Assembly: GCA_964531945.1 (NCBI GenBank) | Contig: CAZHGF010000002.1 | Location: 1-28,389 of the forward strand | Reading direction: 5' to 3' | Origin: an uncultured Gammaproteobacteria bacterium | GTDB lineage: Bacteria; Patescibacteriota; Microgenomatia; UBA1406; GWC2-37-13 | Length of the DNA: 28,389 nt | In this document: positions 32-28,389 of the stretch, piece after piece | Layout: every line of letters begins with the position of its first letter | Numbering within the stretch: the stretch's first letter is position 1 | The notes under the pieces: generated by a model | What the model saw: only the letters and a program-made list of their open reading frames with translations | The model's database searches: none | Told to the model about the DNA's origin: nothing | Made by a program: the position numbers and the translations under genes

Positions 32-100
32 TGAGTTATGAGTTCAGGGTTCGGGGTTTTGTGCGCAACTTAAAACTCATAACCCATAACGCATAACTCG
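32..100. repeat. Inverted heptamer tandem array (unit ~TGRGTTA)
   Basis: Left arm tgagtta/tgagttc/agggttc/ggggttt (32-59); 13-nt centre; right arm aaactca/taaccca/taacgca/taactcg (73-100), whose units are reverse complements of the left consensus. Confidence 0.8.
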
Positions 101-106
101 ACAAAT

Positions 107-521
107 GGGGATGACAGGAATCGACGAAGAACTGCACTTTTAAAAATGGTTAGGGCGTATCTATACGACAAATAGAAAAACACAAATGTCAATAAAGACA
201 TTGAAGATCTTAAGGCTTTTGTAAAAGACTACATTGCTTCTGCAATGGGTCTTAATCAGTCAAGAGCATATGCTTTTGCTGCCTAAGCTTTCAAGAACTC
301 TTGTTAGGCTTCCCTAGGTACCTGCCTATCAAGGGATAAACCAATCTAGGTAAGATCAGTACTGTGTTCCCGATTTGACAATACTGGTTGATAACCCATC
401 AATTGGCAACCGAAATAGGTTTGTATATTTTCCAGTTTCGGAGCAGTAAAAAATATTCTATCTCTAACTAAACGTTTTTAAAATCTTTTTTCGGACCCGG
501 GTTCAATTCCCGGCATCTCCA
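107..521 (+). ncRNA. ssrA: tmRNA (one-piece)
   Basis: 5' GGGGATGACAGGAATCGAC; 3' GGACCCGGGTTCAATTCCCGGCATCTCCA with T-arm; GGGGATG pairs with CATCTCC (514-520); internal tag ORF ends ...YAFAA* (TAA 284-286). CCA is not fully encoded. Confidence 0.96.
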
Positions 522-637
522 CACTTCGCTCCTCGTGTTCACTCGGAGCTACGCGTGGTAAACCACCTTGTAATAATAATCTTTCCTTACTACCTTTTCG
601 CGAAGTGTGTGGCGCGAAGCCTTGGCGAAGTGCCACA
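519..637. repeat. Two imperfect palindromes between tmRNA and the GIY-YIG gene
   Basis: ccac..gctcc/ggagc..gtgg (519-558) and tgtggcgc-gaagccttggcgaa-gtgccaca (608-637) can each fold into stem-loops. Confidence 0.55.
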
Positions 638-666
638 TTATGTAGCTCATAATCCATAGACAATAC

Positions 667-927
667 ATGCTTTCCACTTTAAGCTTCTATTATGTTTATG
701 TTTATATTTTGAAACTTAAAGATAACTCAGTATATATAGGTTTTTCTTCAAATCTAAAAAGGCGATTAAAAACTCACATAGAAGGCTGCGTATCGGCAAC
801 TAAAAATCTTAGACCAGCAGAATTGATTTACTACTCAGCCTTTACTTCTCAAAAGAAAGCTACTGACTTCGAAAAATATCTTAAATCTTCTTCCAGCTTC
901 GCGTTTCGGAATAAGAGGCTGGTTTGA
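667..927 (+). CDS. Small stand-alone GIY-YIG nuclease family protein
   Basis: YVYIL...YIG...RRL..H..G...RP..L.Y...F.....A...E.YLK signature in 86 aa. Confidence 0.88.
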   Translation: MLSTLSFYYVYVYILKLKDNSVYIGFSSNLKRRLKTHIEGCVSATKNLRPAELIYYSAFTSQKKATDFEKYLKSSSSFAFRNKRLV

Positions 928-938
928 TATAATAGGTT

Positions 939-1568
939 ATGCTATATCTTCCAGAATTTCTCACTGTTGTAACGATACATCTGCTGGCAGTCGTCAGCCC
1001 TGGGCCTGATTTTATTATGACGGTTCGCAACACACTCATATACTCCCGAAAAACAGGAATTTATTCTGCTCTTGGATTAGGACTGGGCATTGGTATTCAT
1101 GTAACGTATTCGTTATTAGGGATCGGATTCCTCATCTCAAAATCAATTTTCCTCTTTACTATCATTAAATTTATTGGTGCCGGATATTTGTTTTACATCG
1201 GATATAAATCGCTTACTGCAAAAGCATCACACATCCAAGTAAATCAAGAGGATAAAAAGAAAGATATCGGCAAATTTGAGGCGATGAAAATAGGGTTTAT
1301 TACGAATGTTACGAATCCCAAAGCCACCCTTTTTTTCCTGGCGCTCTTTACCCAGGTAATTCATCCGACAACTCCTTATCTTATTCAAATTCTTTATGGA
1401 TTGGAGATGATGATAGCTACCACATTATGGTTTACTTTTGTGTCAGTACTATTTTCGCATCATATGGTAAAAAAAGGATTTGAGAGAGTAGGAAATGGAG
1501 CAGAAAAAGTGATGGGCGCGATTCTTATAGCGCTGGGGATCAAACTAGCGCTTTCTTCTTCAAAGTAA
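939..1568 (+). CDS. LysE/RhtB family amino-acid efflux translocator
   Basis: SPGPDF motif, GAGYLFYIG, NPKA.LFF motif, about 6 TM helices. Confidence 0.93.
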   Translation: MLYLPEFLTVVTIHLLAVVSPGPDFIMTVRNTLIYSRKTGIYSALGLGLGIGIHVTYSLLGIGFLISKSIFLFTIIKFIGAGYLFYIGYKSLTAKASHIQVNQEDKKKDIGKFEAMKIGFITNVTNPKATLFFLALFTQVIHPTTPYLIQILYGLEMMIATTLWFTFVSVLFSHHMVKKGFERVGNGAEKVMGAILIALGIKLALSSSK

Positions 1569-1571
1569 TCG

Positions 1572-2090
1572 TCACCTTCTCTGTCTGATTCTCATATGCG
1601 AGGCGCATGCTCGATCACCCTTCTGCCCCGTAAACGACCATCTGGCGTATCCTTTCATCGGTCCATCTGCAATTGTCTCAACATACCGCGGTCCATCACC
1701 GAGGTGTGTCGCTGAATGAACAGCAATATTCATTTTCCATCCGAAGCGCGCCGATAAGGGAGAATTATGCGCATTAACATATAGTCCAATAAGATAGTGA
1801 GGAGGAGCAACGCGATGGGCGTATTGACTCGTATCATAAATGGTTCGCAACCGATCGTCAATTGCGCCGACAACCGCCTCATAGGGTGCCTGAATGAATC
1901 GTCCAAAAGGATCTTCAAATTCAAGAGCGCCCGTGTAGTTGGCTCTTTGCGCATCCAAAATCTGTACGACACGAGGAATAAACACATCAGGACCAACCGC
2001 GGGGTCAATTTCTATCCGCGTTGTTTTTGGTAATAACGATGGCAGTCTTACTGACTCAAATCTTCTTCGTGCTTCAACGATGACAGACAT
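1572..2090 (-). CDS. Hypothetical protein
   Basis: 172-aa ORF filling the gap, TATAAT 10 nt upstream of the ATG; no family recognised. Confidence 0.6.
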   Translation of the reverse strand: MSVIVEARRRFESVRLPSLLPKTTRIEIDPAVGPDVFIPRVVQILDAQRANYTGALEFEDPFGRFIQAPYEAVVGAIDDRLRTIYDTSQYAHRVAPPHYLIGLYVNAHNSPLSARFGWKMNIAVHSATHLGDGPRYVETIADGPMKGYARWSFTGQKGDRACASHMRIRQRR

Positions 2091-2111
2091 AAGAAAAATA
2101 ATTATAGCAAA

Positions 2112-2597
2112 CTAAACATTCTTCTCCATCTCCACCGTTTTTACAGGGAATCCTTCAACCACTTCTTCTTTTTCGCCGACAATCTTGAATCCCTGTTTTG
2201 TATAAAAAGCACATGCTTTATCGTTCTGTTTCTCACACTCAAGCCGCAATAATTTTATCGATGGGAAACGCTTGAGCGCCGCGTTCATGAGGTGTGCGCC
2301 GATTCCTTTGCGCTGATGCCGAGGATGGATATAGAGGCGGCTCATAAAAGCAGTATTTTCATCAATTTTTCTGACCGTAATAAGTCCGACTATTTTTCCT
2401 TCCTCCTTCGCAACCGCAAAGAAGGTATCAGGGTTCGCAGCCTGCTGTACTAATGCCTTGGGATCATGCCAGATAGAAGTAATCTTTTCAATTATATCAG
2501 GTGGGTAGAGCGCTCCATACGTATCTTTCCATACATAGCTTAATAGATTTTTTACTTCAAGTATTTCTTCTGGAGGCACCTTCTCTATATTTATCAT
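2112..2597 (-). CDS. GNAT family N-acetyltransferase
   Basis: RLYIHPRHQRKGIGAHL (motif A) and N..A..FY.KQGF (motif B). Confidence 0.92.
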   Translation of the reverse strand: MINIEKVPPEEILEVKNLLSYVWKDTYGALYPPDIIEKITSIWHDPKALVQQAANPDTFFAVAKEEGKIVGLITVRKIDENTAFMSRLYIHPRHQRKGIGAHLMNAALKRFPSIKLLRLECEKQNDKACAFYTKQGFKIVGEKEEVVEGFPVKTVEMEKNV

Positions 2598-2668
2598 ATA
2601 TCCAGTTAAAAATTATACATATTTTTCCTTCATACTCTGTTTTTATAGGGTAGAATTATCATAAATAT

Positions 2669-3223
2669 ATGAAGGTATTAGCTTTGAGGTTCTCATCGGC
2701 TTATCTCAAGACTCTCAAGCGTCCAACAGTGGTTAAAATTGGGGTTATTGCTTTCGCTGCGGTGTTTATTATCATATTTATGATTTTCAATAGGGTTTAT
2801 ATAAAAAATACTGAGACAGAAATACCGAAAAGTGAAAGTAAACCCGAAGTAAAAGGAGCATCTGCATCAGCTTCAATTACCGCTTCTCCGTCAGCAACTA
2901 TTACTGTTTCACCTACGCCGACGAAATCCGTCGCGACACCAACTCCAACACCTCAACCGACGAATACTCCGGTACCTACTAATACCCCCGCTCCAACCGC
3001 TACACCGACTCCTACCCCAACTCCAACCAAAACTCCCACACCTACACCCACTCCAACTGCAGGCGCTTTGACTGCAACACCGACTCCTACTGTGAGTTCA
3101 ACACCAACAAACACTCCAACTCCCACTGGGTCATTAACTCCAACAGATACTCCTACTCCAACACCTACTTCTTCTCCAACACCAACACCGACCAATACAC
3201 CAACGCCTACTCCAACGCCTTGA
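2669..3223 (+). CDS. Membrane-anchored Pro/Thr-repeat (mucin-like) protein
   Basis: One N-terminal TM segment followed by about 110 residues of (PT)n/TPTP repeats to the C-terminus. Confidence 0.8.
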
Positions 3224-3240
3224 GTAGGTTTAAAGGTATA

Positions 3241-3786
3241 TTAAAATGGGTAGCCTTTCAATCCCTGTAACCCTTTTGCTGCAGAGATTTCGCCCATGAG
3301 ATTGTCAATATGTCCCATGAGCACCCTCATGACGAATCGTCCTAATTGCCATTCTCCCAGACCCCACTGTGACAGATTCACTTTTTTCTCAAGAAGATCT
3401 TTATCACTGAGCGTTGTCAAATAATCATCGGTTTGTTTATATACTGCTTTTGCATACTTTTGTAATTTCCGAAGGTCAATTTTTACATTCTTCGCCCATT
3501 TTGCAAAGTTGGTTTCCCAGTCCATGTCCATTGCCGGATGGGGATGACTGATACCAAGTTTTTTATTCCATCCCTGTTCCAGAAGCGGTTTTGCTTGTCT
3601 GATCATGTTGTTGAGCATAAGGTCTTCGGATATAACAACATGGACGTATGCAGCGCCAATGGGTAGCGCTTTTCCTGCAGGTTTCCAGTGCGCAACTTTC
3701 TCATCAACTCCTTGCATGGTGCCTTCAAGCGCGTCATGAGCATCTTTTAACGCTTGGCGAAACAGCTCAACCATTTTATTTTTCAT
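3241..3786 (-). CDS. DinB/YfiT-like four-helix superfamily protein
   Basis: Size and helical pattern; IGAAYVH and GHIDNLMGEI align with the DinB His-containing helices. Confidence 0.72.
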   Translation of the reverse strand: MKNKMVELFRQALKDAHDALEGTMQGVDEKVAHWKPAGKALPIGAAYVHVVISEDLMLNNMIRQAKPLLEQGWNKKLGISHPHPAMDMDWETNFAKWAKNVKIDLRKLQKYAKAVYKQTDDYLTTLSDKDLLEKKVNLSQWGLGEWQLGRFVMRVLMGHIDNLMGEISAAKGLQGLKGYPF

Positions 3787-3809
3787 AATGAGAACGAGAA
3801 GTAATAAAT

Positions 3810-4190
3810 TTACTCTTTCTTCAAATCCTGCCAGACGCCGATGATGTTTCCTTCGGGATCTTTAACGCGCGCATACATCCCCATGTCAAAAACTTTAACT
3901 GTCGGCATTACTACAACACCACCATGCTCTTTAATTTTCTCAAGCGCCGTTTCAATATTCTCAACACCCACAACAAGAACAGGCGTGGGAGCATCATTCT
4001 CTTTTTTCATGATAGCTCCGTTGATAAATCCCGGCTCTGCAGGCATCTGCTGTTCATTCGCGGGGCCGGTGATGGCGATGGTATATTCATCCATTGCCTT
4101 ATGCATCTTCCACCCGAAAACTTCTTCATAAAACTTCACTGCTTCCGACATATTCGCTGCCGGTATCTCAAAATGAATAACCTTATTCAT
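3810..4190 (-). CDS. VOC (glyoxalase/bleomycin-resistance) family protein
   Basis: VIHFEIPA...FYEEVFGW and GMYARVKDPEGNIIGVW motifs. Confidence 0.92.
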   Translation of the reverse strand: MNKVIHFEIPAANMSEAVKFYEEVFGWKMHKAMDEYTIAITGPANEQQMPAEPGFINGAIMKKENDAPTPVLVVGVENIETALEKIKEHGGVVVMPTVKVFDMGMYARVKDPEGNIIGVWQDLKKE

Positions 4191-4254
4191 GGATAGGAAA
4201 AATTTGTAACAATATTATTGTACCTGATATTAATTATGTCGCTATAATAATCTG

Positions 4255-5544
4255 ATGCAGTGGGTAAAAAAACATCCGTTTCTTGCTCTCATTCTTTTAT
4301 CCTTAATCCTCCGTTTCTCTCTCCTTTTCCTCGACTACAGTTTTGATGTCAATAACCATATGGTATGGGCAAAGGATGCTCTCACACGGGGAGTAAGAGG
4401 GTTTTATGAAATACAGTCTTCTCAAGGATTCGCAACTCATTACCCCAATTATCCGCCACTCGCAATCGTGATTTTTTCGTTCGTATATCCGTTGCAGTCA
4501 TTTATTTTTAAACTTGTGTGGTGGTTTAATGTAACGTTTCCGATTTTTCCATCGAAGCTCACTCTGTTTGTCGAAAGCAGAGTGTTTTTAGCAGGATTGC
4601 TTAAGTTACCTTCCATTGCTGCAGATGTGGGAATTGCGCTTCTTCTTATGGAGTTTGCGCGAAAAATGGTTCCCAAGGAAAAAAAGTTACCCTTCATTAC
4701 TGCGTCACTGTTTCTGTTCAATCCGGCAATTTTTTACAATAGTGCTTTTTGGGGTCAGATCGATGCTGTTCCGATTTTTTTCGCGCTTCTCTCATTTTAT
4801 CTCCTGTTTTTCACCAAACACTCTATTCTCAGTGCTCTTACCTTCACCCTTGGCATACTGGTGAAACCAACCATTTTTCTGTATCTGCCGATATATGTCA
4901 TTTATTTGGTATGGAAGCATAAGCTGATAGACTCGTTAAAAGCTCTCGGAACATCTCTTCTGGTTTTTTGGCTTGTTTTTTTACCCTTTTACCAATCCGG
5001 CAACATTTTGTTGTATCCTTTTACCACCTATTACAAAAGTATATTGCTGACGCAGAGTATTCCGTTTGCTACCAATGGCGCTTTTAATTTCTGGTTGTTG
5101 CTTACGCAATTTAAGGGCATCAAAGATACGACGGTGTTTTTACTGGGAATGTCTTATAGAGTCTGGGGTTATATATTGACCGGCGCTATCTTTACTCTGC
5201 TAGCGTCTCACGCTATCAAGAAAAAAGAGAGGGCAACCGCCTTTTTATGCGCCACGTTTCTTCTGTCTTTGGCCGGATTTTTATTTCTTACCAAAATGCA
5301 TGAACGATACCTGATGCTGCCGCTGCCATTTTTGTTGCTGCTGTCGTTGAAACAAAAAGTATACCTCCGAGGATTTATCCTATTGTCTATCATTGGTTTT
5401 TTAAACCTGTATCACAGTTGGCCCGTGCCGCGGAGTGAAATTCTTATTCAACTGCTTGATACGCCGGTGATTTATTCGTTATTATCTTTAGGCAACATAG
5501 GACTATTTTTCTATTTTCTCAAACGATTTATTTCAAAAACTTGA
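4255..5544 (+). CDS. GT-C fold integral-membrane glycosyltransferase (lipid-carrier-sugar dependent; ALG6/GT87-like)
   Basis: About 11-12 TM helices; conserved D after TM1, NYPP, LFNPA...WGQ.D and MHERY motifs. Confidence 0.75.
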   Translation: MQWVKKHPFLALILLSLILRFSLLFLDYSFDVNNHMVWAKDALTRGVRGFYEIQSSQGFATHYPNYPPLAIVIFSFVYPLQSFIFKLVWWFNVTFPIFPSKLTLFVESRVFLAGLLKLPSIAADVGIALLLMEFARKMVPKEKKLPFITASLFLFNPAIFYNSAFWGQIDAVPIFFALLSFYLLFFTKHSILSALTFTLGILVKPTIFLYLPIYVIYLVWKHKLIDSLKALGTSLLVFWLVFLPFYQSGNILLYPFTTYYKSILLTQSIPFATNGAFNFWLLLTQFKGIKDTTVFLLGMSYRVWGYILTGAIFTLLASHAIKKKERATAFLCATFLLSLAGFLFLTKMHERYLMLPLPFLLLLSLKQKVYLRGFILLSIIGFLNLYHSWPVPRSEILIQLLDTPVIYSLLSLGNIGLFFYFLKRFISKT

Positions 5545-6199
5545 TCGTGGCAATTACTTGATCGCAGAGAGAGGTGTCAATACTTTGAACATAGCAGCTT
5601 ATTGACAGTGCAGATCCGTAAGGATTTTGAATAATCGTAAAGTAACTTCCGTCTACCGGCGGGGTAGAGCCGATGGGGAAAGAGAGAATTTTCATCACCC
5701 TTTCTCCTTCAATGACGACTTCTTTTCCATCTACCATGAGAGGGATTTCCCTTGACTCCAGCCCTGGCATCCCAAATCCCGGCGCTTCAAGGAAGAGGGT
5801 GATATTTATCTTCTCTTTTGAGTTGGTTAAGTCAAGATAGGCAAGGCTCGACTTTCTTTGCGAATTGATAGTCTCACTTTTCGGATAATAGAGCATCGCA
5901 AAGGAATAAGGGAAACTTATCTGGAGTTTATAGTCATCAAATCGTACGATCTTCCATCCGGTGTGTGGATTATGACTAACAATAGGTTGTATTGGAGTAG
6001 GGGTGGGAGTATCGGTGGGGAGAGGCGCGCGCGCCAGGGGTTTTACTAAATCTCTTTTTATCCCTTCCAACCTGAATCTGTTTTCATGAAGGGAAATTCT
6101 GATAATAAGCGCTCCCACGACCGCAAGCAGCAGCAGTAACAAATGCGAAGTGAGTTTTGAGTCAGAGGGAGGAGGCTGTTTTCGTTGGAGCATCTTCAT
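5528..6199 (-). CDS. Membrane-anchored extracytoplasmic protein with PT linker and PsbP-like domain
   Basis: TM helix, PTDTPTPTP linker, then W......Y...ISFP motif. The family assignment is tentative. Confidence 0.6.
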   Translation of the reverse strand: MKMLQRKQPPPSDSKLTSHLLLLLLAVVGALIIRISLHENRFRLEGIKRDLVKPLARAPLPTDTPTPTPIQPIVSHNPHTGWKIVRFDDYKLQISFPYSFAMLYYPKSETINSQRKSSLAYLDLTNSKEKINITLFLEAPGFGMPGLESREIPLMVDGKEVVIEGERVMKILSFPIGSTPPVDGSYFTIIQNPYGSALSISCYVQSIDTSLCDQVIATIKFLK

Positions 6200-6252
6200 C
6201 TTAAGTTTAATTATTCACAAATGCAATCAAGAAACAATGGGGAAGGATATTA

Positions 6253-6474
6253 TTACCACGCCATCGCAACAACTCCGGCGATGAGGATGATAGTCAACAC
6301 GACGAGAATCGTGTGGCCAATAATGAATCTTTGAAATTTTCTGGGGATAAGGAGGCCGAAGTTCTGTTTTGTCCGCGTGATTTCCCTAATGAGCAGGTTG
6401 TTGTAGATATAAACGGCAGTCAAAATAAGAATGAAAATTATTGCAATAACAGTGGTGATATAGGGGTGATTCAT
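6253..6474 (-). CDS. Small two-TM membrane protein
   Basis: Two hydrophobic helices; start overlaps the upstream gene's stop (ATGA). Confidence 0.65.
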   Translation of the reverse strand: MNHPYITTVIAIIFILILTAVYIYNNLLIREITRTKQNFGLLIPRKFQRFIIGHTILVVLTIILIAGVVAMAW

Positions 6475-7106: not shown

Positions 7107-7167
7107 ACCTCTTCACCTCCTTTTCCAAAACTAATAGTCGATGTTAAGGTTGCAAGCCTATATATTT

Positions 7168-7196
7168 ATTATACTCCTTTCAAAATGCAATAGCAA
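7168..7196 (-). promoter_or_regulatory. Sigma70-type promoter for the PH-domain gene
   Basis: TTGCTA-N17-TATAAT on the minus strand. Confidence 0.55.
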
Positions 7197-7219
7197 GTAT
7201 GTCTCCAACCAATAACCAT

Positions 7220-7246
7220 AAAAAAACCCTCCCCGAGGGGAGGGTT
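7220..7246 (-). terminator. Rho-independent terminator after hsp20
   Basis: 9-bp stem aaccctccc/gggagggtt, 4-nt loop, followed by a T-run on the minus strand. Confidence 0.85.
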
Positions 7247-7259
7247 CCTCTTACACTAC

Positions 7260-7796: not shown

Positions 7797-7813
7797 GGGG
7801 ATGTTGTGAGTTT

Positions 7814-7902
7814 TCGATCTTTGATCATCGGTGTTGGATGGCCGGTGGTAAAAGAGTGCTCTGTAAAACTTTCAGCATTGAAAGTCGAAGATCGAATATC
7901 GG
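7814..7902. repeat. Inverted heptamer tandem array (unit ~TCGATCT)
   Basis: Left tcgatct/ttgatca/tcggtgt/tggatgg/ccggtgg (7814-7848); right gcattga/aagtcga/agatcga/atatcgg (7875-7902). Confidence 0.6.
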
Positions 7903-7912
7903 ATATGTTTTT

Positions 7913-8656
7913 CTACTCATGATGGAGAAATGTAATCGAAGCGTACATGAGGATGATACCGATGATAAAGGGAAGAGACTGAGCCCACCCTTTTTGTTTT
8001 TTAAAATCTTTATGCATATCGGGGATCAGATCAGAACAGGCGATATAGATAAACATGCCGGCGCTGAAAGCGAGAGAAATTGGGAGCCAGTGTTCAAGAG
8101 TATTTAAGAAAAAGTAACCCCCAATCGCTCCAGCTAATGCACTGAGTGAAGAAATAAAGTTGAATAAAAGTGCTTTTAATTTGCTCATGCCGCTATGAAT
8201 GAGAATAGTAAAATCAGCAATTTCTTGGGGGATTTCATGGGCTGTGATCGCAAGTGTTGTGATAAAACCGAGCGCAGGGTTTGTAAGAAATGCAGCCGCA
8301 ATAGCAACGCCATCAATGAAATTATGGAACGAGTCACCGATAAGTATCAAAAGTGATGATGGCTTTTCGCCGTGAGACTCGTCATGATGATGAAACCATA
8401 AGAGAAATCGTTCGAGAAAAAAGAAAAGAATAATGGCAAAGAATGAAGGAATGAAAATATTTACTTCCTCTCCTCCTTCATGAAGTGCTTCTGGTAATAA
8501 ATCCAGAAACGCGGTAGTCAGTATAACACCTGCTGCACAGTTAACGAGGTAGGGAATGATTTGTTGAGTAAGCAGTTTTCGCCATAAGAGAAAAGCGCCT
8601 CCGATGAGAGAGACACTACTTACAAGAAGAGTAGCGATAATTATAGTTGATAACAT
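7913..8656 (-). CDS. ZIP family metal (zinc) transporter
   Basis: His-rich loop HHHDESHG, DSFHNFIDG and AHEIPQEIAD signature helices. Confidence 0.95.
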   Translation of the reverse strand: MLSTIIIATLLVSSVSLIGGAFLLWRKLLTQQIIPYLVNCAAGVILTTAFLDLLPEALHEGGEEVNIFIPSFFAIILFFFLERFLLWFHHHDESHGEKPSSLLILIGDSFHNFIDGVAIAAAFLTNPALGFITTLAITAHEIPQEIADFTILIHSGMSKLKALLFNFISSLSALAGAIGGYFFLNTLEHWLPISLAFSAGMFIYIACSDLIPDMHKDFKKQKGWAQSLPFIIGIILMYASITFLHHE

Positions 8657-8663
8657 AGTTATA

Positions 8664-9142: not shown

Positions 9143-9232
9143 TGTTAGTACGTTAGTTGGTTAATTTGTTAGTTCGCACATATAGAAAGATATTTTTTAC
9201 GAACTAACGGTAAACGAACTAACCTACTAACT
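9143..9232. repeat. Inverted octamer tandem array (unit ~NGTTAGTT)
   Basis: Left tgttagta/cgttagtt/ggttaatt/tgttagtt (9143-9174); right aactaacg/gtaaacg/aactaacc/tactaact (9202-9232). Confidence 0.75.
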
Positions 9233-9258: not shown

Positions 9259-10659
9259 TTATAGTTTCTTCACCTCAGTTGCGACTACCGTATTGGGGGG
9301 AGCGAGTATGGAACGGTTCAATTGATTATTTTCCACAACCACATTGTCAAACGTCGTTGCCGTTCCGTCAAGGTAGGTGAGAGTAAGAGTATGGGCGCCA
9401 TTCTCTAAGTTGGTGAATGTCACCGGTATCAGCTCAGTATTCCTGTTGTCTTTATCGTAATTTACGAGTATTAATACCGTTTTATTTCCATCCGTACCTG
9501 CCATTCCCCGCACATAGGTTCCTTCTCCCTCGACATTGAGCCGATTTCCCTGAAGGAGAGTGAGGAGCTTGAGTGCGTGATAGCGCGGTTTTTTTTCACC
9601 CGTATGACTTAAGATTCCCCATCGGGGAGCGGGGCCGTCTTTTGCTTCAAATAAAAATGCCATATCAAAGTTGAATCGGGAGAAATTACGGATAGATGCG
9701 ATGGTATGCGCCGCTCCCACATTGGTATCCGCGATGGAGTTTGGTTCGGAGTCATACCCCCATTCACTGATGATTTTCGGGAGCGATTGAAATCGGACAT
9801 ACTGCTCTGAATCTGACAGCCATTCGTTTATTTTCCCAATATCATCGGTATAGTCTTCGGTGCTTTTGCTGTAGTGATGCCAGGAGAGAAAATCAAGCCG
9901 GAGATTGTTTTCTATAACGTAGTTTAAAAACATCTGTATCCAGTTCTGATAGAGCGCCGTGGTGACTGGTCCCCCAATGAGGAATGAGTAAACATTTTGT
10001 GCTTTTTCCGCGCCCAGTACAGAGTACAGATAAAGTTTCTTATAGTCTTTTTCTCCCGTATACAAACTCCACTTTCCAAATGTCTCTAGATCAGGTTCGT
10101 TCCAGACTTCGTAGTGAATGTCTTTCAACCACTCTCCCTCAATCTGACCGCAGAGTCGTGTTGATTGACCGCTATAGCGTTCGATTGTTTTTTGCACTAT
10201 GAGACTCCATTCACCCCACTCTTTTGGTTGTGATATGAGTGAGCCGTCTGATGAGACCTCTGGCGGCATATACCCCAGTGAAAAAAACGGTTTAGCACCA
10301 GTACGATAGATATCGCAAACCGTAGCATCAAGCTGATCCCAGTGAAAAGAAAGTGTTCCATCGCTTTCTCTTTTGACAACATCATAATAGTCATAAATGT
10401 GATCGAGTCGGATTGAACGGGGATTTAATGCGGAAAGCGCCGGCACAATATTTTCTAACATTCGCACACCCTTTTCTTCTCCTCCCTGTGCGAGCGCCAT
10501 CCATCGAGATGGAATAACACCGGAAGTTTGTTTTACATCGACAGTAATGTTCGCCTTTACTAGAGTAGCTTTTGAGATGTATTGAAAGGAGAGAAACAAG
10601 AGGATTGGAATAGTAGCGATGACTGTAACTATAAGGATTCGTTTAAACTTCCTGCTCAT
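9259..10659 (-). CDS. Membrane-anchored glycoside hydrolase, GH39-like (clan GH-A)
   Basis: N-terminal TM; YEVWNEPD acid/base motif, LDFLSWHHYS, IISEWG nucleophile motif. Confidence 0.85.
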   Translation of the reverse strand: MSRKFKRILIVTVIATIPILLFLSFQYISKATLVKANITVDVKQTSGVIPSRWMALAQGGEEKGVRMLENIVPALSALNPRSIRLDHIYDYYDVVKRESDGTLSFHWDQLDATVCDIYRTGAKPFFSLGYMPPEVSSDGSLISQPKEWGEWSLIVQKTIERYSGQSTRLCGQIEGEWLKDIHYEVWNEPDLETFGKWSLYTGEKDYKKLYLYSVLGAEKAQNVYSFLIGGPVTTALYQNWIQMFLNYVIENNLRLDFLSWHHYSKSTEDYTDDIGKINEWLSDSEQYVRFQSLPKIISEWGYDSEPNSIADTNVGAAHTIASIRNFSRFNFDMAFLFEAKDGPAPRWGILSHTGEKKPRYHALKLLTLLQGNRLNVEGEGTYVRGMAGTDGNKTVLILVNYDKDNRNTELIPVTFTNLENGAHTLTLTYLDGTATTFDNVVVENNQLNRSILAPPNTVVATEVKKL

Positions 10660-11139: not shown

Positions 11140-11164
11140 CAGGTAGCTCTTTAAGAGCTACCTG
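11140..11164. terminator. Probable bidirectional terminator
   Basis: caggtagctct-tta-agagctacctg 11-bp stem between convergent genes, with a T-run after it on the + strand. Confidence 0.75.
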
Positions 11165-11166
11165 TT

Positions 11167-12591: not shown

Positions 12592-12633
12592 CGTCATTCT
12601 GGAGTCGTCACTTCACTCCTCCCCAGAATGACG
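12592..12633. repeat. CGTC-tagged REP-like palindrome (short copy)
   Basis: Perfect 11-bp terminal inverted repeats CGTCATTCTGG/CCAGAATGACG, identical to those at 24117-24194. Confidence 0.8.
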
Positions 12634-17192: not shown

Positions 17193-18302
17193 ATGTATAA
17201 AAAACGGTTGGAAACTATCAGAAACAAATTGGTTAAACAAAAACTTGATGCCATTCTCATAACCGACTACTATAACCTGACATATCTTACTGGTTTCACT
17301 GGATTCTCACCTGAAGAGCGGGAGGGGTATCTTCTTATTATAAAACATGCAAGTCATTTTTTGACCGACGGGAGATATCTCAATGAGAAACTCAAAACTC
17401 AAATGGGAAAACTTACCGTTGCCTGTCATCTCATTACCAGAGAAAAAACAGTTTTAGAACTTTTGCCAGTTCTTGCACAAACTGAGAAATGCAACAAAAT
17501 TGCGTTTGAGGCGGAGAGCGTTAGATTTGACGAGTATCAAAAGTTTGGAGAGTTACTTAAACAAAAACTTATACCAGTGGAGCAGTTTATTGAAGACGAG
17601 CGGCGGGTAAAGGATAGTGAAGAGATAAGTTGTATTCAAGAAGCGTGTAATTTGACAACCCGTTGTCTTGAGGATATAAAAAAAGTAATCCAGGTGGAAG
17701 TGGATGAAAAAGAGATTGCCTACAAAATTGAAGCGTGGATTCGAGAGAGAGGGTATGAGCTCGCATTCTCTCCGATTATTGTCGCCGTAGATAAAAATGC
17801 CGCTATTCCCCACTATGATACTCGTTTGAGCGACAGGAGAGTGAAACGGGGATCACTCATCTTGATCGATTTTGGTATTAAGTACAAAGGATATGTTTCA
17901 GATATTACCCGGGTATTTTTTGCGGGAAAGCCGAATCCGGAAATTGAAGATGCATATAATGTATTATTACACGCGCAGGAAAAAACTATAGAAAAGCTGA
18001 ATACGGACAAGGATGCAAAATCACTCGATAGCTACTGCCGGAGATTGCTTATTGAAAATAATCAAATAGACTTTTCTCATTCTACTGGTCATGGAGTCGG
18101 TCTGGAGATTCATGAATCGCCCCGGCTCTCCAGCCGTTCTCAGGACATATTGGTAGACGGCAATGTTTTTACCGTGGAGCCGGGGATTTATATTGAGGGA
18201 AAGTGGGGTATGAGGATAGAGGATACCGTTGTGTTGCAGAACGGAAAAGCAAAGGTTTTGACGAAGTTTACGAAGAAAATAGAGGATTTACTTCTTAAGT
18301 AA
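17193..18302 (+). CDS. Xaa-Pro aminopeptidase (M24B)
   Basis: N-terminal creatinase-like domain (YLTGF, TDGRY); metal ligands in IDFG..Y.GY.SDITR, HSTGHGVGLEIHE, TVEPG, RIED. Start reassigned to ATG 17193. Confidence 0.94.
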   Translation: MYKKRLETIRNKLVKQKLDAILITDYYNLTYLTGFTGFSPEEREGYLLIIKHASHFLTDGRYLNEKLKTQMGKLTVACHLITREKTVLELLPVLAQTEKCNKIAFEAESVRFDEYQKFGELLKQKLIPVEQFIEDERRVKDSEEISCIQEACNLTTRCLEDIKKVIQVEVDEKEIAYKIEAWIRERGYELAFSPIIVAVDKNAAIPHYDTRLSDRRVKRGSLILIDFGIKYKGYVSDITRVFFAGKPNPEIEDAYNVLLHAQEKTIEKLNTDKDAKSLDSYCRRLLIENNQIDFSHSTGHGVGLEIHESPRLSSRSQDILVDGNVFTVEPGIYIEGKWGMRIEDTVVLQNGKAKVLTKFTKKIEDLLLK

Positions 18303-18357
18303 TTAGCAATTGGTGATCAGTAATGAGGAGAGCAATCCAAAACAATTACTAATTTCA
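18298..18357. repeat. Degenerate inverted heptamer array (unit ~AGTAATT)
   Basis: Left agtaatt/agcaatt/ggtgatc/agtaatg (18298-18325, first unit contains the peptidase TAA); right aattact/aatttca (18344-18357). Confidence 0.5.
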
Positions 18358-21482: not shown

Positions 21483-21487
21483 ACGGT

Positions 21488-22138: not shown

Positions 22139-22158
22139 GGTAATGGATATTTGTATTG

Positions 22159-22188
22159 TTGACAAGGGTTACGAATATTTGATACAGT
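22159..22188 (+). promoter_or_regulatory. Sigma70 promoter for the large surface protein
   Basis: TTGACA-N18-TACAGT with TGn extension. Confidence 0.6.
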
Positions 22189-22200
22189 GAAATCATCTCT

Positions 22201-24081: not shown

Positions 24082-24116
24082 ATACCCTCCTTCGTAACTA
24101 AAGAGATTATGTTATG

Positions 24117-24194
24117 CGTCATTCTGGTAAGTCCCGACGGAGTCGAGGACGCATCCAGTCCGCAAGTTGGCCGACTGGAAAAGCCAGAATGACG
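24117..24194. repeat. CGTC-tagged REP-like palindrome (long copy with two internal hairpins)
   Basis: TIRs CGTCATTCTGG/CCAGAATGACG; internal stems gtcc-cgac/gtcg-ggac (24131-24150) and tccagtc/gactgga (24154-24179). Confidence 0.8.
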
Positions 24195-24285
24195 ATCAGG
24201 AAAGTAATCACGATAATAAATTTACCACACAATTGTTGCATATAGTCTATCGTCTACAAAAATTCTGAGCTTTACGCTGTTATAC

Positions 24286-25800
24286 ATGCTGGCAAAAGTA
24301 TATTCAGGGACAACCGTGGGGCTTGATGGGGTGCTCATTGATGTTGAGGTGGATGTAGCGAATAAAGGATTTCCAACGTTTACAATAGTGGGGCTTCCCA
24401 ATAAGGCGATTGATGAGGCAAAAGATCGGGTTCGGACCGCGATAGTGAATGCATCGTTTGAGATGCCTGACTCGAGACTGACGGTAAATCTGGCTCCCGC
24501 TGATTTGCCAAAAGTCGGGTCAAGTTTTGATCTGCCGATTGCGGTCGGGATTCTGGTTGCGTCAGGAGTCATTGGCGCTGAACTTCCGAAGAAAAGTATA
24601 TTCGTAGGTGAACTTTCTCTGGAGGGGAAACTCCGGCGGATTCCTGGAGTTATATCGGTTGCGGCAATGGCGGGGGAAAAACAGTTCGATTCAATATTTG
24701 TTCCGGTCGAGAACGCGCCAGAGGCAGCGCTCGTTGATGATATTACCGTTTTCCCGGTGTTTAACCTGCTCGATCTTATTCTCCACATGAATGGCGAGAA
24801 ACTCATTGCTCCCTATTACTCAGATGGTCTACTTTCGCAAGATGCTCATTTTGAAGTAGATTTTGGAGATGTGAAAGGGCAAGAGCAGGCCAAACGTGCT
24901 TTAGAGATTGCCGCTGCCGGATTTCACAATGTCCACTTAAAAGGACCGCCCGGCACCGGAAAAACCTTGATATCACGTGCACTTCCCTCGATTTTGCCAG
25001 AAATGGAAAAAGAAGAGGTGATCGAGACTTCGAAAATTTACTCAATCGCAGGATTATTGAATCCGCATAAGTTTATTATGACCCGTCCTTTTCGCTCTCC
25101 ACACCATACGACTTCTCGTATCGGTCTGATTGGAGGAGGGAGTAATCCATCACCGGGTGAGATTTCTTTAGCTCATCGAGGAGTATTGTTTCTTGATGAA
25201 TTTCCCGAGTTCCCCCGCTCAGTACTGGAATCACTCCGGCAACCGCTTGAAGATGGGGTTATCACGGTATCACGGGCATCAGGAAGCTTGACATTTCCTT
25301 CGCGGTTTCTCCTCCTTGCCGCATCCAACCCGTGTCCCTGCGGATATTTGGGTCATCCGACAAAGCACTGCAAATGTCTTCCCGGAACTATTTTAAAATA
25401 CCAGAAGCGTATTTCAGGGCCGCTTCTTGACCGGATCGACCTGCACGTCGATGTACCGGTGATAGAACAGGAAAAATTACTCGGGACAGAACAGGGAGAG
25501 GTAAGTAGCGCTATACGTGAGAGGGTTGCGGAAGCGCGCGTCCGTCAGAAAAAACGATCGACTTCATTAAAAACGAAAACAAATGGAGAAATGTCGCCGC
25601 AGGATATAAAAAAGTTCTGCATGATGAACAATGAAACAAAAGCATTTTTACGACAGGCAATCAGCCGCCGCTCCCTTTCAGCACGATCATATTTTAAAGT
25701 CATTAAAGTGAGTCAAACGATTGCAGATCTGGAGGGAAGTGAGACAATTCAAGTTTCTCATATAGCAGAAGCCCTCCAATTCCGGCGGAAGGAAGAGTGA
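24286..25800 (+). CDS. comM: YifB/ComM family Mg-chelatase-like AAA+ ATPase (competence helicase)
   Basis: FTIVGLP, VNLAPAD, Walker A GPPGTGKT, RPFRSPHH, LAHRGVLFLDE, AASNPCPCG, SGPLLDRID, LSAR. Confidence 0.96.
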   Translation: MLAKVYSGTTVGLDGVLIDVEVDVANKGFPTFTIVGLPNKAIDEAKDRVRTAIVNASFEMPDSRLTVNLAPADLPKVGSSFDLPIAVGILVASGVIGAELPKKSIFVGELSLEGKLRRIPGVISVAAMAGEKQFDSIFVPVENAPEAALVDDITVFPVFNLLDLILHMNGEKLIAPYYSDGLLSQDAHFEVDFGDVKGQEQAKRALEIAAAGFHNVHLKGPPGTGKTLISRALPSILPEMEKEEVIETSKIYSIAGLLNPHKFIMTRPFRSPHHTTSRIGLIGGGSNPSPGEISLAHRGVLFLDEFPEFPRSVLESLRQPLEDGVITVSRASGSLTFPSRFLLLAASNPCPCGYLGHPTKHCKCLPGTILKYQKRISGPLLDRIDLHVDVPVIEQEKLLGTEQGEVSSAIRERVAEARVRQKKRSTSLKTKTNGEMSPQDIKKFCMMNNETKAFLRQAISRRSLSARSYFKVIKVSQTIADLEGSETIQVSHIAEALQFRRKEE

Positions 25801-25827
25801 TAGAGATGTCAGATCGCAGATGACAGA
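25798..25827. repeat. Left heptamer array flanking the four-helix-bundle gene (unit ~TGNCAGA)
   Basis: tgataga-ga-tgtcaga/tcgcaga/tgacaga; the first unit contains the comM TGA stop. Confidence 0.75.
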
Positions 25828-25840
25828 AATTGATTGAAAT

Positions 25841-26208
25841 ATGATAAAAACAAACTTTGTAAAATTAACAGTATGGAATAAATCGCATAGATTTGTATTA
25901 TCGATCTATTCGTTAACTACGCAATTTCCGCAACATGAAATCTATGGTTTGATAAGTCAAATAAGAAGATCTGCAAGCTCTGTGGCAATGAATATTGTTG
26001 AAGGTGATGAAAGGAGAACAGCGCGAGAGTATGGGCAGTTCTTATATGTTGCAAAAGTTCATTAGCAGAGACACAATATCAATTATTACTTGCCCGGGAC
26101 TTAAAGTATATAAGTGAACTTCAATTCAATAACCTGAATCTACAGGCCTCAGATATTGGAAAAATGATTAATGGTTTAATCAAATATTTACAAGGTAGAC
26201 ACGAGTAA
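25841..26208 (+). pseudogene. Four-helix-bundle protein (23S rRNA-IVP/Avd-like, TIGR02436-type) split by a 1-nt frameshift
   Basis: N-part ...VW.KSH.FVL.IY..T..FP..E.YGL.SQIRRSASSV..NIVEG stops at 26065; another frame continues SLAETQYQLLLARDLKYI...IGKMINGLIKYLQGRHE* (26059-26208). One added base near 26057 restores about 122 aa. Confidence 0.88.
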
Positions 26209-26223
26209 AATCGATCGTAGATA

Positions 26224-26251
26224 TCTGACATCAGTCATCTGTGATCTAATC
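26224..26251. repeat. Right (inverted) heptamer array flanking the four-helix-bundle gene
   Basis: tctgaca/tcagtca/tctgtga/tctaatc are reverse complements of the left-array units. Confidence 0.75.
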
Positions 26252-26263
26252 GGCGCTTTGCCC

Positions 26264-26292
26264 TTGACAAGCGTAGTTTGATACGGTAATCT
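26264..26292 (+). promoter_or_regulatory. Sigma70 promoter for the pilin pair
   Basis: TTGACA-N17-TAATCT, 10 nt before the ATG. Confidence 0.6.
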
Positions 26293-26302
26293 GTAAATTG
26301 TT

Positions 26303-26725
26303 ATGAAACTCAACAAAATTGTTTCCCCCGTAGTAACTCTTTTTGCTTTTTTATTTCTTTTTAGTGTTTCTGTTTCCGCGCAGAATGTATCGGCAAACTT
26401 ACCTTTTACGCTTCCGAGTCTGCCCTATGTTATCGGTTTTGTTATAAGACTTTTTTTTATAATAGCCGGTGTTATTGCGCTCGTTTATCTTCTTCTGGGA
26501 GCATTCGCGTGGGTTACCTCCGGAGGGAATAAGGAAAATGTTGAAAAAGCACGAGAAAAAATACAGGCTGCAATCATTGGTCTCATCCTGATTGTTATTG
26601 TCATTGTTGTTTTGGCTGCCATTGAACGATTTGTTTTTAATCAAAAAGTCTGTTTCGGACTTACCTGTGATTTGACTCTGCCTGCCCTCTTAAATCCTGA
26701 GATAACGCCAGTGCCACCGAGATAA
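26303..26725 (+). CDS. VirB2/TrbC-like (T4SS-type) pilin
   Basis: Signal peptide; AG.IA.VYLL.GAF.W.TSGG..E.V.KAR..I..AIIGL two-helix core; C-terminal Cys pair. Confidence 0.8.
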   Translation: MKLNKIVSPVVTLFAFLFLFSVSVSAQNVSANLPFTLPSLPYVIGFVIRLFFIIAGVIALVYLLLGAFAWVTSGGNKENVEKAREKIQAAIIGLILIVIVIVVLAAIERFVFNQKVCFGLTCDLTLPALLNPEITPVPPR

Positions 26726-26740
26726 CAGTACATATAAAAT

Positions 26741-27064
26741 ATGCAAGAATGGGGAGATTGTGTTGTCGATGAAATCCCAACACTCAAATGCCTTGAGGTT
26801 GTTTTCAATAATCTCATTTTTCTCTCCTCTGCAATTGCTGTTTTGGCGCTCTTCGTCATGTTTCTCTTTGCCGGGTTTACCTACCTTACTTCATTCGGGA
26901 ATCCGGAGAAAGTAAAAAAAGCGCAGGCAACCTTTCGCTACGCGATTATCGGCCTTATTATTTTTGTAAGCTCTTATCTTATCTTAAAAATTATTGATGT
27001 CCTCTTTTTGGGAGGTCAGGGACTCATCTTCCAGTTCCGGCTTCCCGGTCCGGATGGACTCTGA
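26741..27064 (+). CDS. VirB2/TrbC-like (T4SS-type) pilin, second paralog
   Basis: A..LFVMFLFAGF.YLTS.GNPEKV.KA.....YAIIGL core; N-terminal C...PTLKC Cys pair; no signal peptide. Confidence 0.8.
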   Translation: MQEWGDCVVDEIPTLKCLEVVFNNLIFLSSAIAVLALFVMFLFAGFTYLTSFGNPEKVKKAQATFRYAIIGLIIFVSSYLILKIIDVLFLGGQGLIFQFRLPGPDGL

Positions 27065-27066
27065 GG

Positions 27067-27145
27067 TATTAGATGCCTGATCACAAATCACTGATTCCAG
27101 AGATCAGTCATCAGAAATCTGCCATCTGTAATCTGACATCTATCA
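27067..27145. repeat. Empty inverted heptamer array of the same unit family as the four-helix-bundle flanks
   Basis: Left tattaga/tgcctga/tcacaaa/tcactga; 9-nt centre; right tcagtca/tcagaaa/tctgcca/tctgtaa/tctgaca/tctatca. Confidence 0.8.
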
Positions 27146-27298
27146 TCTATTTTGTTCCGGGGTTACATAAATCACTTTCACTCCTTTGCTATCAGGAAGC
27201 GGAGAAATGAGGATATCTGAGTCTCTCAGAAAAAGAATACTTATATAAATAAGAAGTGTTATCCCGAGGACAATAAACACGTAACCGAAAAATTTCAT
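27143..27298 (-). CDS. Small single-TM membrane protein (51 aa)
   Basis: MKFFGYVFIVLGITLLIYISILFL...; its ATG overlaps the GT2 stop (ATGA), so the start is reassigned from 27451. Confidence 0.65.
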   Translation of the reverse strand: MKFFGYVFIVLGITLLIYISILFLRDSDILISPLPDSKGVKVIYVTPEQNR

Positions 27299-28227
27299 AT
27301 ATTCACCGATTCCTTTATGAGATACTGTGGTCTTCGCTGCATTTCTCTGTATATCTTGCTGATGTACTCGCCAATAATGCCAATCGTGATAAGTTGAACA
27401 CCCCCCAAAAAAACAATAGAAAAAAAGAGGGATGCCCAACCGGGAAGCCACTCTACATCAGGAAAAAGAGCGTGTTCAATGACCTTATATACTACGACAA
27501 CGATACTAAATAGTGAAGTAAGAAATCCCAAATATGTAGCCATACGGAGTGGCTTTGTGGAAAAAGAGGTAATACCATCAAGGGCTAAATTAACCATTTT
27601 GGAAAGCGGATAGTGCGTTTCCCCTGCATGTCGTTTTTCCCGTTCAAATCGCACATACTCCACCGGATATCCTCCCCAGGCGACAAGCCCTCGTAAAAAA
27701 CGGGACTGTTCAGGAAGGTTGTTCAGAAATTCTACTACCTGTCGGTCAAGTAGTCGAAAGTCACCAATATCCTGAGGAATTGGTGTGTCTGAGAAAAAGT
27801 TTATAAACCGATAGAATAATTTCGCTGTTAGTTGTTTAAATAAATCATCGCCATGCCGTTTGATCCGCTGCGCGTAGATAATTTTTGTTCCCTGTTGCCA
27901 CTTTCCAATCATCTCAGGGATAATCTCCGGAGGATCCTGAAGGTCTGCGTCTAAACTTACAACGCAATCTCCTTTTGCCAGTGTGTACCCGCACGTTAAA
28001 GCCATCTGGTGTCCAAAATTCCGGTTAAAAGACACGAGTTTTATATGCTTATTTTCTTTTGTATGATGCTTGATATGTTCTTCTGTCTGGTCTTTTGAGC
28101 CATCATTGATAAAGATAATTTCAAAACGGTATTTATCAACAATTGGGAGGAGGCGGTTGAGGAGAGGATCAATATTACTTGCTTCGTTATAAACGGGGAT
28201 GATAATAGAGAGAAGAAAGTCTTTCAT
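27295..28227 (-). CDS. GT2 polyprenol-phosphate glycosyltransferase (GtrB/ArnC-like)
   Basis: SIIIPVYNE, NDGSKD, RNFGHQ.A, DADLQDPP, GDFRLLDR, two C-terminal TM helices. Confidence 0.94.
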   Translation of the reverse strand: MKDFLLSIIIPVYNEASNIDPLLNRLLPIVDKYRFEIIFINDGSKDQTEEHIKHHTKENKHIKLVSFNRNFGHQMALTCGYTLAKGDCVVSLDADLQDPPEIIPEMIGKWQQGTKIIYAQRIKRHGDDLFKQLTAKLFYRFINFFSDTPIPQDIGDFRLLDRQVVEFLNNLPEQSRFLRGLVAWGGYPVEYVRFEREKRHAGETHYPLSKMVNLALDGITSFSTKPLRMATYLGFLTSLFSIVVVVYKVIEHALFPDVEWLPGWASLFFSIVFLGGVQLITIGIIGEYISKIYREMQRRPQYLIKESVNI

Positions 28228-28259
28228 GACTGTTATTCAGTATACCACCTCTTTTTTTG

Positions 28260-28329
28260 TTACGGGGCCAGGAGTTGAACCTGGTCTAAAAGATTATGAG
28301 CCTTTTGTGCAACCGTACACTACCCCGTA
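28260..28329 (-). tRNA. tRNA with CAT anticodon (Met-type; exact identity uncertain)
   Basis: Acceptor TACGGGG/CCCCGTA, D-stem GTGT/GCAC, anticodon arm AAAGG-CTCATAA-TCTTT, T-arm CCAGG-TTCAACT-CCTGG; 70 nt; CCA not encoded. Confidence 0.9.
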
Positions 28330-28389
28330 ATATAGTTGAAATTAGTTAAAAATAGCTCATTCCAACGAACTTTACGACTAATTCTAACT

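Follow-up and report, generated by a model that had tools for sequence, protein, structure and literature searches.

What are the inverted tandem arrays of short DNA units that lie beside stop codons in a 28,389-nucleotide contig from groundwater? The contig (CAZHGF010000002.1; C2 in our numbering, referred to in full as the window) belongs to a 1.07-Mb assembly, G000, which consists of 142 contigs and is 94% complete. An earlier note on this DNA had described six elements in it, each made of tandem short units, a spacer and inverted tandem units, had placed them at gene 3' ends, and had suggested that they could act as terminators. We find that the elements probably represent one genome-wide population of dispersed hairpins, selfish in appearance, built of inverted tandem arrays and similar to the intervening sequences (IVS) of bacterial rRNA, and that their adjacency to stop codons probably reflects tolerance of insertion at such sites. 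Elements were copied to unrelated loci, and they have come to occupy junctions at which related genera carry no insert. The full-length form would be one that carries a gene for a four-helix-bundle (4HB) protein of family PF05635 in its loop, as at positions 25798-26251 of the window, and the short forms would be gene-less derivatives or relatives of it.

Inverted tandem arrays in the window

Each of the six stretches was read and folded, and folding energies were compared with those of shuffled sequences (z). Four of the six proved solid. Element 1 (32-99) has 4+4 units of the TGAGTTA type: four heptamers in the left arm (TGAGTTA, TGAGTTC, AGGGTTC and GGGGTTT; 32-59; 17/21 self-match at period 7), a loop at 60-71, as placed by the fold, and four inverted heptamers in the right arm (AAAACTC, ATAACCC, ATAACGC and ATAACTC; 72-99). 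The predicted hairpin has an energy of -28 kcal/mol (z -3.6). Upstream of it is the 3' end of smpB (2-31, plus strand), partial since the contig begins here, with a TGA stop at 29-31; the end of its frame, REMQERMKR, matches the C-termini of SmpB proteins encoded directly upstream of tmRNA in relatives. The tmRNA gene (107-522, plus strand; found by ARAGORN and by Rfam model RF00023 with 87.8 bits) starts 7 nt downstream of the element.

Element 2 (7813-7903) has 4+4 degenerate heptamers of the TCGATCN type, with TTCGATC, TTTGATC, ATCGGTG and TTGGATG in one arm (7813-7840), CATTGAA, AGTCGAA, GATCGAA and TATCGGA in the inverted arm (7876-7903), and a loop at 7841-7875 in the fold; its predicted hairpin (-34 kcal/mol, z -4.1) is flanked by the stop codon of the ZIP gene (7913-7915, minus strand) and by a promoter-like site (7796-7767, minus strand). 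Element 3 (9144-9231) is built of 4+4 octamers of the GTTAGTTN type. One arm reads GTTAGTAC, GTTAGTTG, GTTAATTT, GTTAGTTC (9144-9175; 18/24 self-match at period 8), the inverted arm reads GAACTAAC, GGTAAAC, GAACTAAC, CTACTAAC (9201-9231), and the fold puts the loop at 9176-9200. Here the predicted hairpin (-33 kcal/mol, z -5.3) has the stop codon of a GH39 gene on one side (9259-9261, minus strand) and, on the other, a promoter-like site (9132-9105, minus strand).

The fourth solid element is a cassette, in which inverted arrays of GATGNCA units enclose the 4HB gene (25841-26208, plus strand). Its left arm (25798-25832) reads TGATAGA, GATGTCA, GATCGCA, GATGACA, GAAATTG, the first triplet being the comM stop codon (25798-25800), and its right arm (26214-26251) contains the inverted units TCTGACA, TCAGTCA, TCTGTGA and TCTAATC. 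The conserved TTGACA (-35) box of a downstream pilin-like gene follows at 26264-26269 (plus strand); the same box is found right after the comM stop in related genomes G001, G003, G005 and G011.

The remaining two stretches fared less well. Element 6 (27070-27153), which begins 3 nt past a stop codon at 27062-27064, is weak: a degenerate left array of GATNNCN-type units (27070-27104) is followed by seven direct units (CAGTCAT ... CTGACAT, CTATCAT; 27105-27153; 16/21 self-match) of the same family as the cassette arms, complementarity of the two arrays is limited to the GAT core, and shuffled sequences fold equally well (z 0.01). The stretch at 18298-18357 was dropped from the set, its self-match at period 7 being below 14/21 and its fold reaching only -8.8 kcal/mol (z 0.01). 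A search of Rfam returned no family at the elements of the window.

A genome-wide population of arrays

The whole assembly was scanned for tandem arrays by autocorrelation, with Markov-3 simulations as controls. At a self-match of at least 17/21, arrays numbered 205 for period 7, 65 for period 8 and 27 for period 10, versus 0-2 in the controls (0-1 for period 7). With the threshold set at 16/21 or higher, 360 arrays of period 7, 8 or 10 were found versus 0-1 in the controls; 297 of these had period 7 (again versus 0-1), which is the excess over chance by which heptameric long simple-sequence repeats, or short tandemly repeated repetitive (STRR) sequences, are recognized. An inverted partner, defined as a reverse complement matching at 15/21 or better within 450 nt, was present for 235 of the 360 arrays (ca. 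65%), while a control with reversed, non-complemented sequence gave 17 of 360. The genome-wide scan with an inverted-arm requirement, which the earlier note had proposed as a check, thus gave a clear positive result.

Merging of the arrays yielded 264 elements, which occupy 2.0% of the genome. Their common plan is 3-10 imperfect units (typically 4-6 per array) of 7 nt, or less often of 8, 9 or 10 nt, followed by a loop and by inverted units. We counted 108 canonical units, with period 7 commonest, followed by 8, 10 and 9; the units are AT-rich and have no G-tracts. The view that units differ from element to element under a constant architecture therefore extends from the window to the entire genome. 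The dominant unit is CATGAAA, with 70 arrays, in a family that spans 75 loci. A family with a 10-nt unit, AACTAATTNN, forms long inverted arrays at C8:3756-3899, C10:14163-14271, C11:12601-12731 and C6:16974-17017; in the assembly, this unit was not seen in any 4HB cassette. There is also a practical consequence: array hairpins break short-read assemblies, and at least 30 ends of the 142 contigs stop within arrays.

Copying and insertion of elements

A composite heptamer/octamer element is present in at least five copies, which share a near-identical core of ca. 110-150 nt at loci whose flanks are unrelated. The order within the composite is CATGAAA heptamers, CAAGAGAG-type octamers, a loop and the inverted arrays, and the number of outer units varies between copies. 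Members of the CATGAAA family with both arms always have the outer order (CATGAAA)n ... (TTTCATG)n, never the reverse; one locus has a forward-reverse-forward arrangement. At C36:3358-3589, a GC-rich palindromic segment of ca. 95 nt is nested in a CATGAAA composite element, which indicates that elements insert into elements.

Two junctions of the window could be compared with those of related genomes. At the comM-pilin junction, the comM stop codon and the TTGACA box are 3-15 nt apart in G001, G003 and G005; in G000 the whole 455-nt cassette is located precisely there, and in G011 there is a different, GC-rich insert. The smpB-ssrA junction is empty (0-5 nt) in G003, G006, G008 and G019. It is filled by element 1 in G000, by other arrays in G004 and G009, and by other hairpins in G001, G002, G005 and G007. 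Both junctions, we conclude, tolerate inserts and have received them more than once; they are not conserved signals. No array follows the ZIP gene in any of five relatives; synteny downstream of this gene is not kept there, so the empty-site comparison is not a strict one for elements 2 and 3.

The arms of individual elements do not appear to have evolved as pairs. Among 38 pairs of the CATGAAA family, the complementarity between the two arms of one element was 0.848 in the best register, and left arms matched the right arms of other elements just as well (0.859 +/- 0.006). The match between own arms is thus no more than what the family consensus provides, and compensatory changes are absent; variation is found at unit positions 5 and 7, with the same few unit variants in both arms. 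The "sliding" pairing out of register that the earlier note had envisaged agrees with these values, as any register pairs about equally well. Unit identity is kept and exact pairing is not, a pattern that fits unit recognition or neutral turnover better than it fits a tuned RNA structure.

A gene-bearing form of the element

The 4HB gene of the window (PF05635/TIGR02436) contains one frameshift, near 26058, and accordingly gives two PF05635 matches in different frames (25862-26056 and 26035-26175; 76.9 and 35.5 bits). A contig assembled from sequencing run X1, which may be the source sample of this metagenome-assembled genome (MAG) itself, spans 25997-26686 and has no difference from the window. 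An intact paralogue is located on C68 (TIGR02436, 131 bits). In total, G000 has eight PF05635 loci, and all of the seven that were inspected lie between inverted arrays, whose unit families are AGACCTT, GTGAACN, AAGTATT, CATGAAA, AAATCAA (twice) and GATGNCA.

The same arrangement was observed outside G000. Of 28 4HB loci in relatives, which belong to the same order but to other genera and families, 26 had reverse-complement flanks (at least 16/21), versus 5 of 28 in the reversed control, and the periods of the arms were 7, 8, 9 or 10. All four 4HB genes of a Thermodesulfobacteriota genome were bracketed by inverted arrays; a Peribacteria genome has two 4HB genes, neither of them clearly bracketed.

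Gene-less arrays are also associated with the 4HB genes. Among the other period-7 arrays of G000, 54% share their unit with a cassette, compared with 15% under the null. Across 30 related genomes, which are non-independent and were compared with no correction for phylogeny, array density in the DNA sampled increases with 4HB gene count (rho 0.79): genomes with at least two such genes (n=14) had 60 arrays in 487 kb, and genomes without any (n=12) had 5 arrays in 450 kb. We take this link between array density and 4HB gene count as suggestive only.

Other candidate partners of the arrays were considered. The accessory protein Avd of diversity-generating retroelements was rejected, as G000 contains no RVT_1 match and the Avd model scored 54.6 bits, below its cut-off of 80. 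A RAYT-like gene (C107:615-1277) was rejected as the enzyme of the arrays, being flanked by its own GC-rich REPs that are unrelated to them. The palindromes around this RAYT-like gene (L108:575-600, 1295-1310 and 1344-1365) resemble a REP-like hairpin, likewise GC-rich, which the window has in the leader of lexA (12596-12632). In groundwater runs this hairpin has a depth of 200-1100 and many different flanks, which means that it is common to many genomes or loci of the community.

Could the arrays have arisen where they stand? Local replication slippage and template switching would make them ordinary long simple-sequence repeats, immobile and served by no dedicated protein, with 4HB genes captured or retained in the loops. 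Such a process would account for the different unit numbers of otherwise identical copies and for the many singleton units; the missing target-site duplications and enzyme are in line with it, and an excess of heptamer repeats is known in many bacteria, at least as Mrazek 2007 is cited in PMC4679880. Slippage does not account, however, for near-identical composite cores at unrelated loci, for the fixed polarity of the CATGAAA family, or for a whole cassette at a junction where three related genera have no insert. It also leaves unexplained why arrays are almost absent from relatives that lack 4HB genes and have similar GC content and genome size. We therefore consider an origin of the population by slippage unlikely.

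Elements in frame within genes

Fifty elements were found in 38 open reading frames (ORFs), open in the reading frame of the host gene; an intact ORF was part of the scoring, so all 50 are intact by definition. The host genes are real as judged by Pfam and include LeuRS, LepA, a P-type ATPase, CarB, TGT and an amine oxidase. LepA has two inserts, of 25 and 58 residues, which are absent from five relatives (51-74% identity) and from solved LepA structures, and the first of them is a complete array hairpin of the GATGNCA type. Three inserts in TGT and four in LeuRS likewise coincide with arrays. Three heptamers amount to 21 nt, and hence every frame of an array encodes the same 7-residue repeat; recurrent peptides, RSQMSDV-like and SDIRHQT-like, occur in six hosts. 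These inserts (a multiple of three in length, with no in-frame stop) occupy surface loops and linkers and, judging from the reading frames, are presumably read through as peptides of 7-residue periodicity.

In coding DNA the density of elements is 21 times lower than in non-coding DNA, a difference that fits indiscriminate insertion with later loss of inserts that disturb the frame, introduce stops or stand at positions that do not tolerate them. The same two observations, low coding density and intact ORFs, indicate that the inserts are constrained by translation, and on these grounds splicing of the inserts at the RNA level was rejected. The elements thus remodel essential proteins in a minimal genome, with LeuRS, LepA, CarB and TGT among the proteins affected.

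The LepA comparison also bears on database labels. The nearest LepA records come from MAGs labeled "uncultured Gammaproteobacteria" (59-68% identity over the best tblastn segment, 70-74% in alignment), the next is from a Candidatus Peribacteria MAG (51% in alignment), and the score of LepA from E. coli does not exceed that of LepA from Aquifex. The labels of the nearest records do not fit this pattern of similarity.

An alternative with about the same standing as slippage is that the arrays are host regulatory sites, on which a protein that binds tandem repeats (a 4HB pentamer or a global regulator) lands and controls the neighboring genes. Conserved unit cores in arms whose pairing is not optimized (swapped arms pair as well, and element 6 retains only the GAT core), the typical number of units per array, the co-occurrence of arrays with 4HB genes and the position of window elements 11-18 nt upstream of -35 boxes are all compatible with this proposal. 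Pairs of this kind in Geobacter metallireducens were annotated as regulator sites (Aklujkar et al. 2009, PMC2700814), and the obvious candidate for the landing protein is the 4HB protein encoded by full-length elements. The arrays, however, are not conserved at orthologous promoters, and the host genes are functionally unrelated, many of the copies being inside ORFs. In addition, more than 100 unit types face only eight 4HB genes, and the burst is specific to this lineage. Regulation as the reason for the arrays is therefore improbable.

Position of elements relative to genes

To locate the elements, genes were called with a dicodon model, and all 264 elements were classified. Occupied gaps made up 19% of tandem gaps (126/651), 20% of divergent, 5'-5' gaps (26/128) and 11% of convergent, 3'-3' gaps (16/143); 50 elements (19%) were inside ORFs, 30 at contig ends and 16 at gene edges. 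Convergent gaps were occupied less often than divergent ones (odds ratio 0.49, p 0.044), also when both flanking genes were at least 150 aa long (9/94 versus 19/81, p 0.014). The placement of the elements at gene 3' ends was thus not upheld; the earlier note had itself pointed to equal frequency at 5' ends as the telling observation, and gaps with two 5' ends turned out to be the more frequently occupied.

Proximity to stop codons as such is real. All retained elements of the window lie within ca. 30 nt of a stop codon (29-31, 7913-7915, 9259-9261, 25798-25800 and 27062-27064), as had been noticed. In tandem gaps of the whole genome the upstream stop is at a median distance of 12.5 nt and the downstream start at one of 28.5 nt, 87 of 126 elements are within 30 nt of the stop, and there is a mild bias to the stop side (75 nearer the stop versus 51 nearer the start, p 0.04). 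The proximity is not specific, however: each window element has, on the side away from the stop codon, a promoter-like -35 box at 11-18 nt or, in the case of element 1, the tmRNA gene at 7 nt. The genome is compact, promoters following stop codons after only a few nucleotides, and stop adjacency would follow from this. Moreover, many units contain TGA, TAA or TAG, so that an element inserted into the final codons of a gene brings a stop with it. The best reading is that stop-codon adjacency reflects where insertion is tolerated.

These data also bear on the possibility that the hairpins are 3'-end signals, that is, factor-independent terminators or 3' stabilizers of the upstream mRNA. Their stability (z -3.6 to -5.3) and the distances to stop codons speak for it, as does a similar bias of the Xanthomonas GGGAATC repeats towards stop codons (PMC4692102). 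Their stems, however, are AT-rich with periodic mismatches and not GC-rich, and a T-rich tail (at least 6 T in 8 nt, in the sense direction) follows 5 of 88 hairpins, against a background of 6%; intrinsic terminators with a canonical GC stem and T-tract are found elsewhere in the window (7220-7251, minus strand; 11140-11164, plus strand). Given, in addition, the low occupancy of convergent gaps, the elements inside ORFs, the location of element 1 just before tmRNA, the sites that are empty or otherwise filled in related genera and the arms without covariation, a role in termination or 3' stabilization is very unlikely, and array hairpins should not be annotated as terminators.

In the region of element 1, ARAGORN assigns a tag of 32 residues to the tmRNA (107-522), and behind the tmRNA gene there is a stand-alone, GIY-YIG-like ORF of 86 aa (667-927), with a weak match to the N-terminus of UvrC only.

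Weight of the evidence and a possible mechanism

Several observations weigh against a population of dispersed, IVS-like elements whose position is set by insertion tolerance. No target-site duplication was seen at the five near-identical composite copies or at the cassette, and neither a transposase nor an excision product was seen. Filled and empty sites were compared between genera, with none from the same genus and with no raw reads, and hence no insertion polymorphism was observed; four groundwater DNA runs yielded short contigs only, at a depth of ca. 3, with no joint at any element. Gene conversion among older elements, and not new insertion, could have produced the near-identical copies. 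That the in-frame inserts are translated is deduced from intact reading frames, not from peptides. Cassettes with the matching unit are missing for 46% of period-7 arrays, in an assembly that is fragmented and 94% complete. In G010, which is 96% complete, four arrays were found in 40 kb (L205 and L206), and the genome has no PF05635 match at E<=1e-5. Similarity of 4HB proteins tracks similarity of units only weakly (rho -0.21, over non-independent pairs). The shared ancestry of the genomes in the density comparison and the mild stop-side bias in tandem gaps belong here as well. Taken together with the copies at unrelated loci and the filled junctions, these points leave dispersal with tolerance-limited insertion as the probable explanation.

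How the elements would spread can be proposed by analogy. A pentameric 4HB protein would bind its own tandem units and promote or stabilize copying, in a role analogous to that of RAYT with REPINs. The elements themselves persist wherever an insert is tolerated: in gaps between stop and promoter, in divergent gaps and in frame within proteins. Once transcribed, the stems may be substrates of RNase III, as are those of rRNA intervening sequences. No catalytic partner of the 4HB protein was identified, and its participation in the life of the elements is a tentative proposal, to which we give somewhat less than an even chance. A broader form of the proposal, in which 4HB pentamers of the PF05635 family recognize their own units of 7-10 nt and, with no transposase involved, drive (or license) copying of the DNA that the arms enclose, is doubtful.

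If it were true, intervening sequences of rRNA, the excess of heptamer repeats in bacteria and in-frame inserts of the kind found in Rickettsia would form one widespread, previously undescribed class of mobile elements, and this 1-Mb genome, with eight cassettes and about 260 elements, would be a natural case of a burst. The association ties the unexplained bacterial heptamer excess to PF05635/TIGR02436 ("23S rRNA IVS protein"), a large family about whose function little is known. It also offers a compact system in which binding of tandem units by the 4HB protein, and movement of the elements, can be put to the test.

Comparison with known systems

Repeats of the unit TAACTGA are abundant as intergenic tandem heptamers in Beggiatoaceae, Cyanobacteria and Bacteroidetes, with a patchy phylogenetic spread (MacGregor 2015, PMC4679880). 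They differ from the elements described here in having a single unit, in being nearly always direct (one indirect set among 170) and in being concentrated just upstream of starts. REP/REPIN-RAYT systems (PMC3116915) share with our elements the dispersed intergenic inverted doublets that form hairpins, a cognate gene flanked by the repeats, and a relation between autonomous and non-autonomous forms. The gene here, however, encodes a non-catalytic 4HB protein and not a Y1 transposase, and the REPs that flank the RAYT-like gene of this genome are different and GC-rich.

The arrays share tandem heptamers with the Xanthomonas GGGAATC repeats, with the STRR-type repeats of Nostoc and with long simple-sequence repeats in general. 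The Xanthomonas repeats often have about four units and form 70-75 opposite-strand pairs per genome, which are potential stem-loops (Rehm et al. 2015, PMC4692102). They are biased to the first 50 nt after a stop codon, or overlap it, and are rare between divergent ORFs (PMC4692102); the convergent pairs there crowd stop codons. In G000, by contrast, divergent gaps are as occupied as tandem ones and 19% of elements are intragenic; likewise, the single G-rich unit of Xanthomonas is read as a G-quadruplex, whereas here more than 100 AT-rich units lack G-tracts. No link of the Xanthomonas repeats to 4HB genes has been printed. In Geobacter metallireducens, four or five tandem units of 7 or 8 nt mostly form opposite-strand pairs with variable spacing (Aklujkar et al. 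2009, PMC2700814). These are paired short-unit arrays like ours, and one family, with four GGACCGG units, lies within as well as between genes. They were annotated as sites of global regulators or as regulatory RNAs, and their origin, in-frame reading and relation to 4HB genes were not analyzed there. The presence of 4HB genes inside operons has been noted in cas loci (PMC3936711). We found no paper that links gene-less arrays, in-frame inserts and the 4HB family; the printed precedents, from Xanthomonas, Geobacter and Coxiella, are partial.

Rickettsia palindromic elements, which Ogata et al. are said to have described in 2000, reportedly are palindromic dispersed repeats that lie in frame in housekeeping genes and add peptide segments at the protein surface. 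They form families of fixed sequence, 100-150 nt long, with neither tandem-unit arms nor an associated gene. The inserts in LepA, TGT and LeuRS resemble them in being in-frame palindromic inserts in conserved genes that are absent from orthologues. This is an analogy only: the Rickettsia elements differ in lacking tandem arms and a gene, and they belong to another lineage and an unrelated sequence family. With miniature inverted-repeat transposable elements the arrays share inverted arms; the copies examined have no target-site duplication, and the parent element carries a 4HB gene and not a transposase.

The closest counterparts are the 23S rRNA intervening sequences with an ORF, known from Leptospira and Coxiella. 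The elements of G000 differ from them in location, since they are found not in rRNA but at gene junctions and within ORFs, and in number, with eight cassette loci (seven inspected, of six unit families) plus hundreds of gene-less hairpins per genome. The window cassette is located between comM and a pilin-like gene and not in a 23S or 16S rRNA helix; no 23S rRNA gene was found in the G000 assembly, and an rnc gene is present. In both systems a selfish or mobile nature has been proposed with no known enzyme, and in both a PF05635 gene is found in the loop of a long stem of terminal inverted repeats, with heptamers beside the ORF; in the window these are tandem GATGNCA units. The IVS of Coxiella burnetii consists of an S23p (PF05635) ORF and a 28-bp terminal stem that is cut by RNase III, with three to four GACAGAT heptamers whose number varies between strains (PMC4990558), and this heptamer has the same core as the arms of the window cassette.

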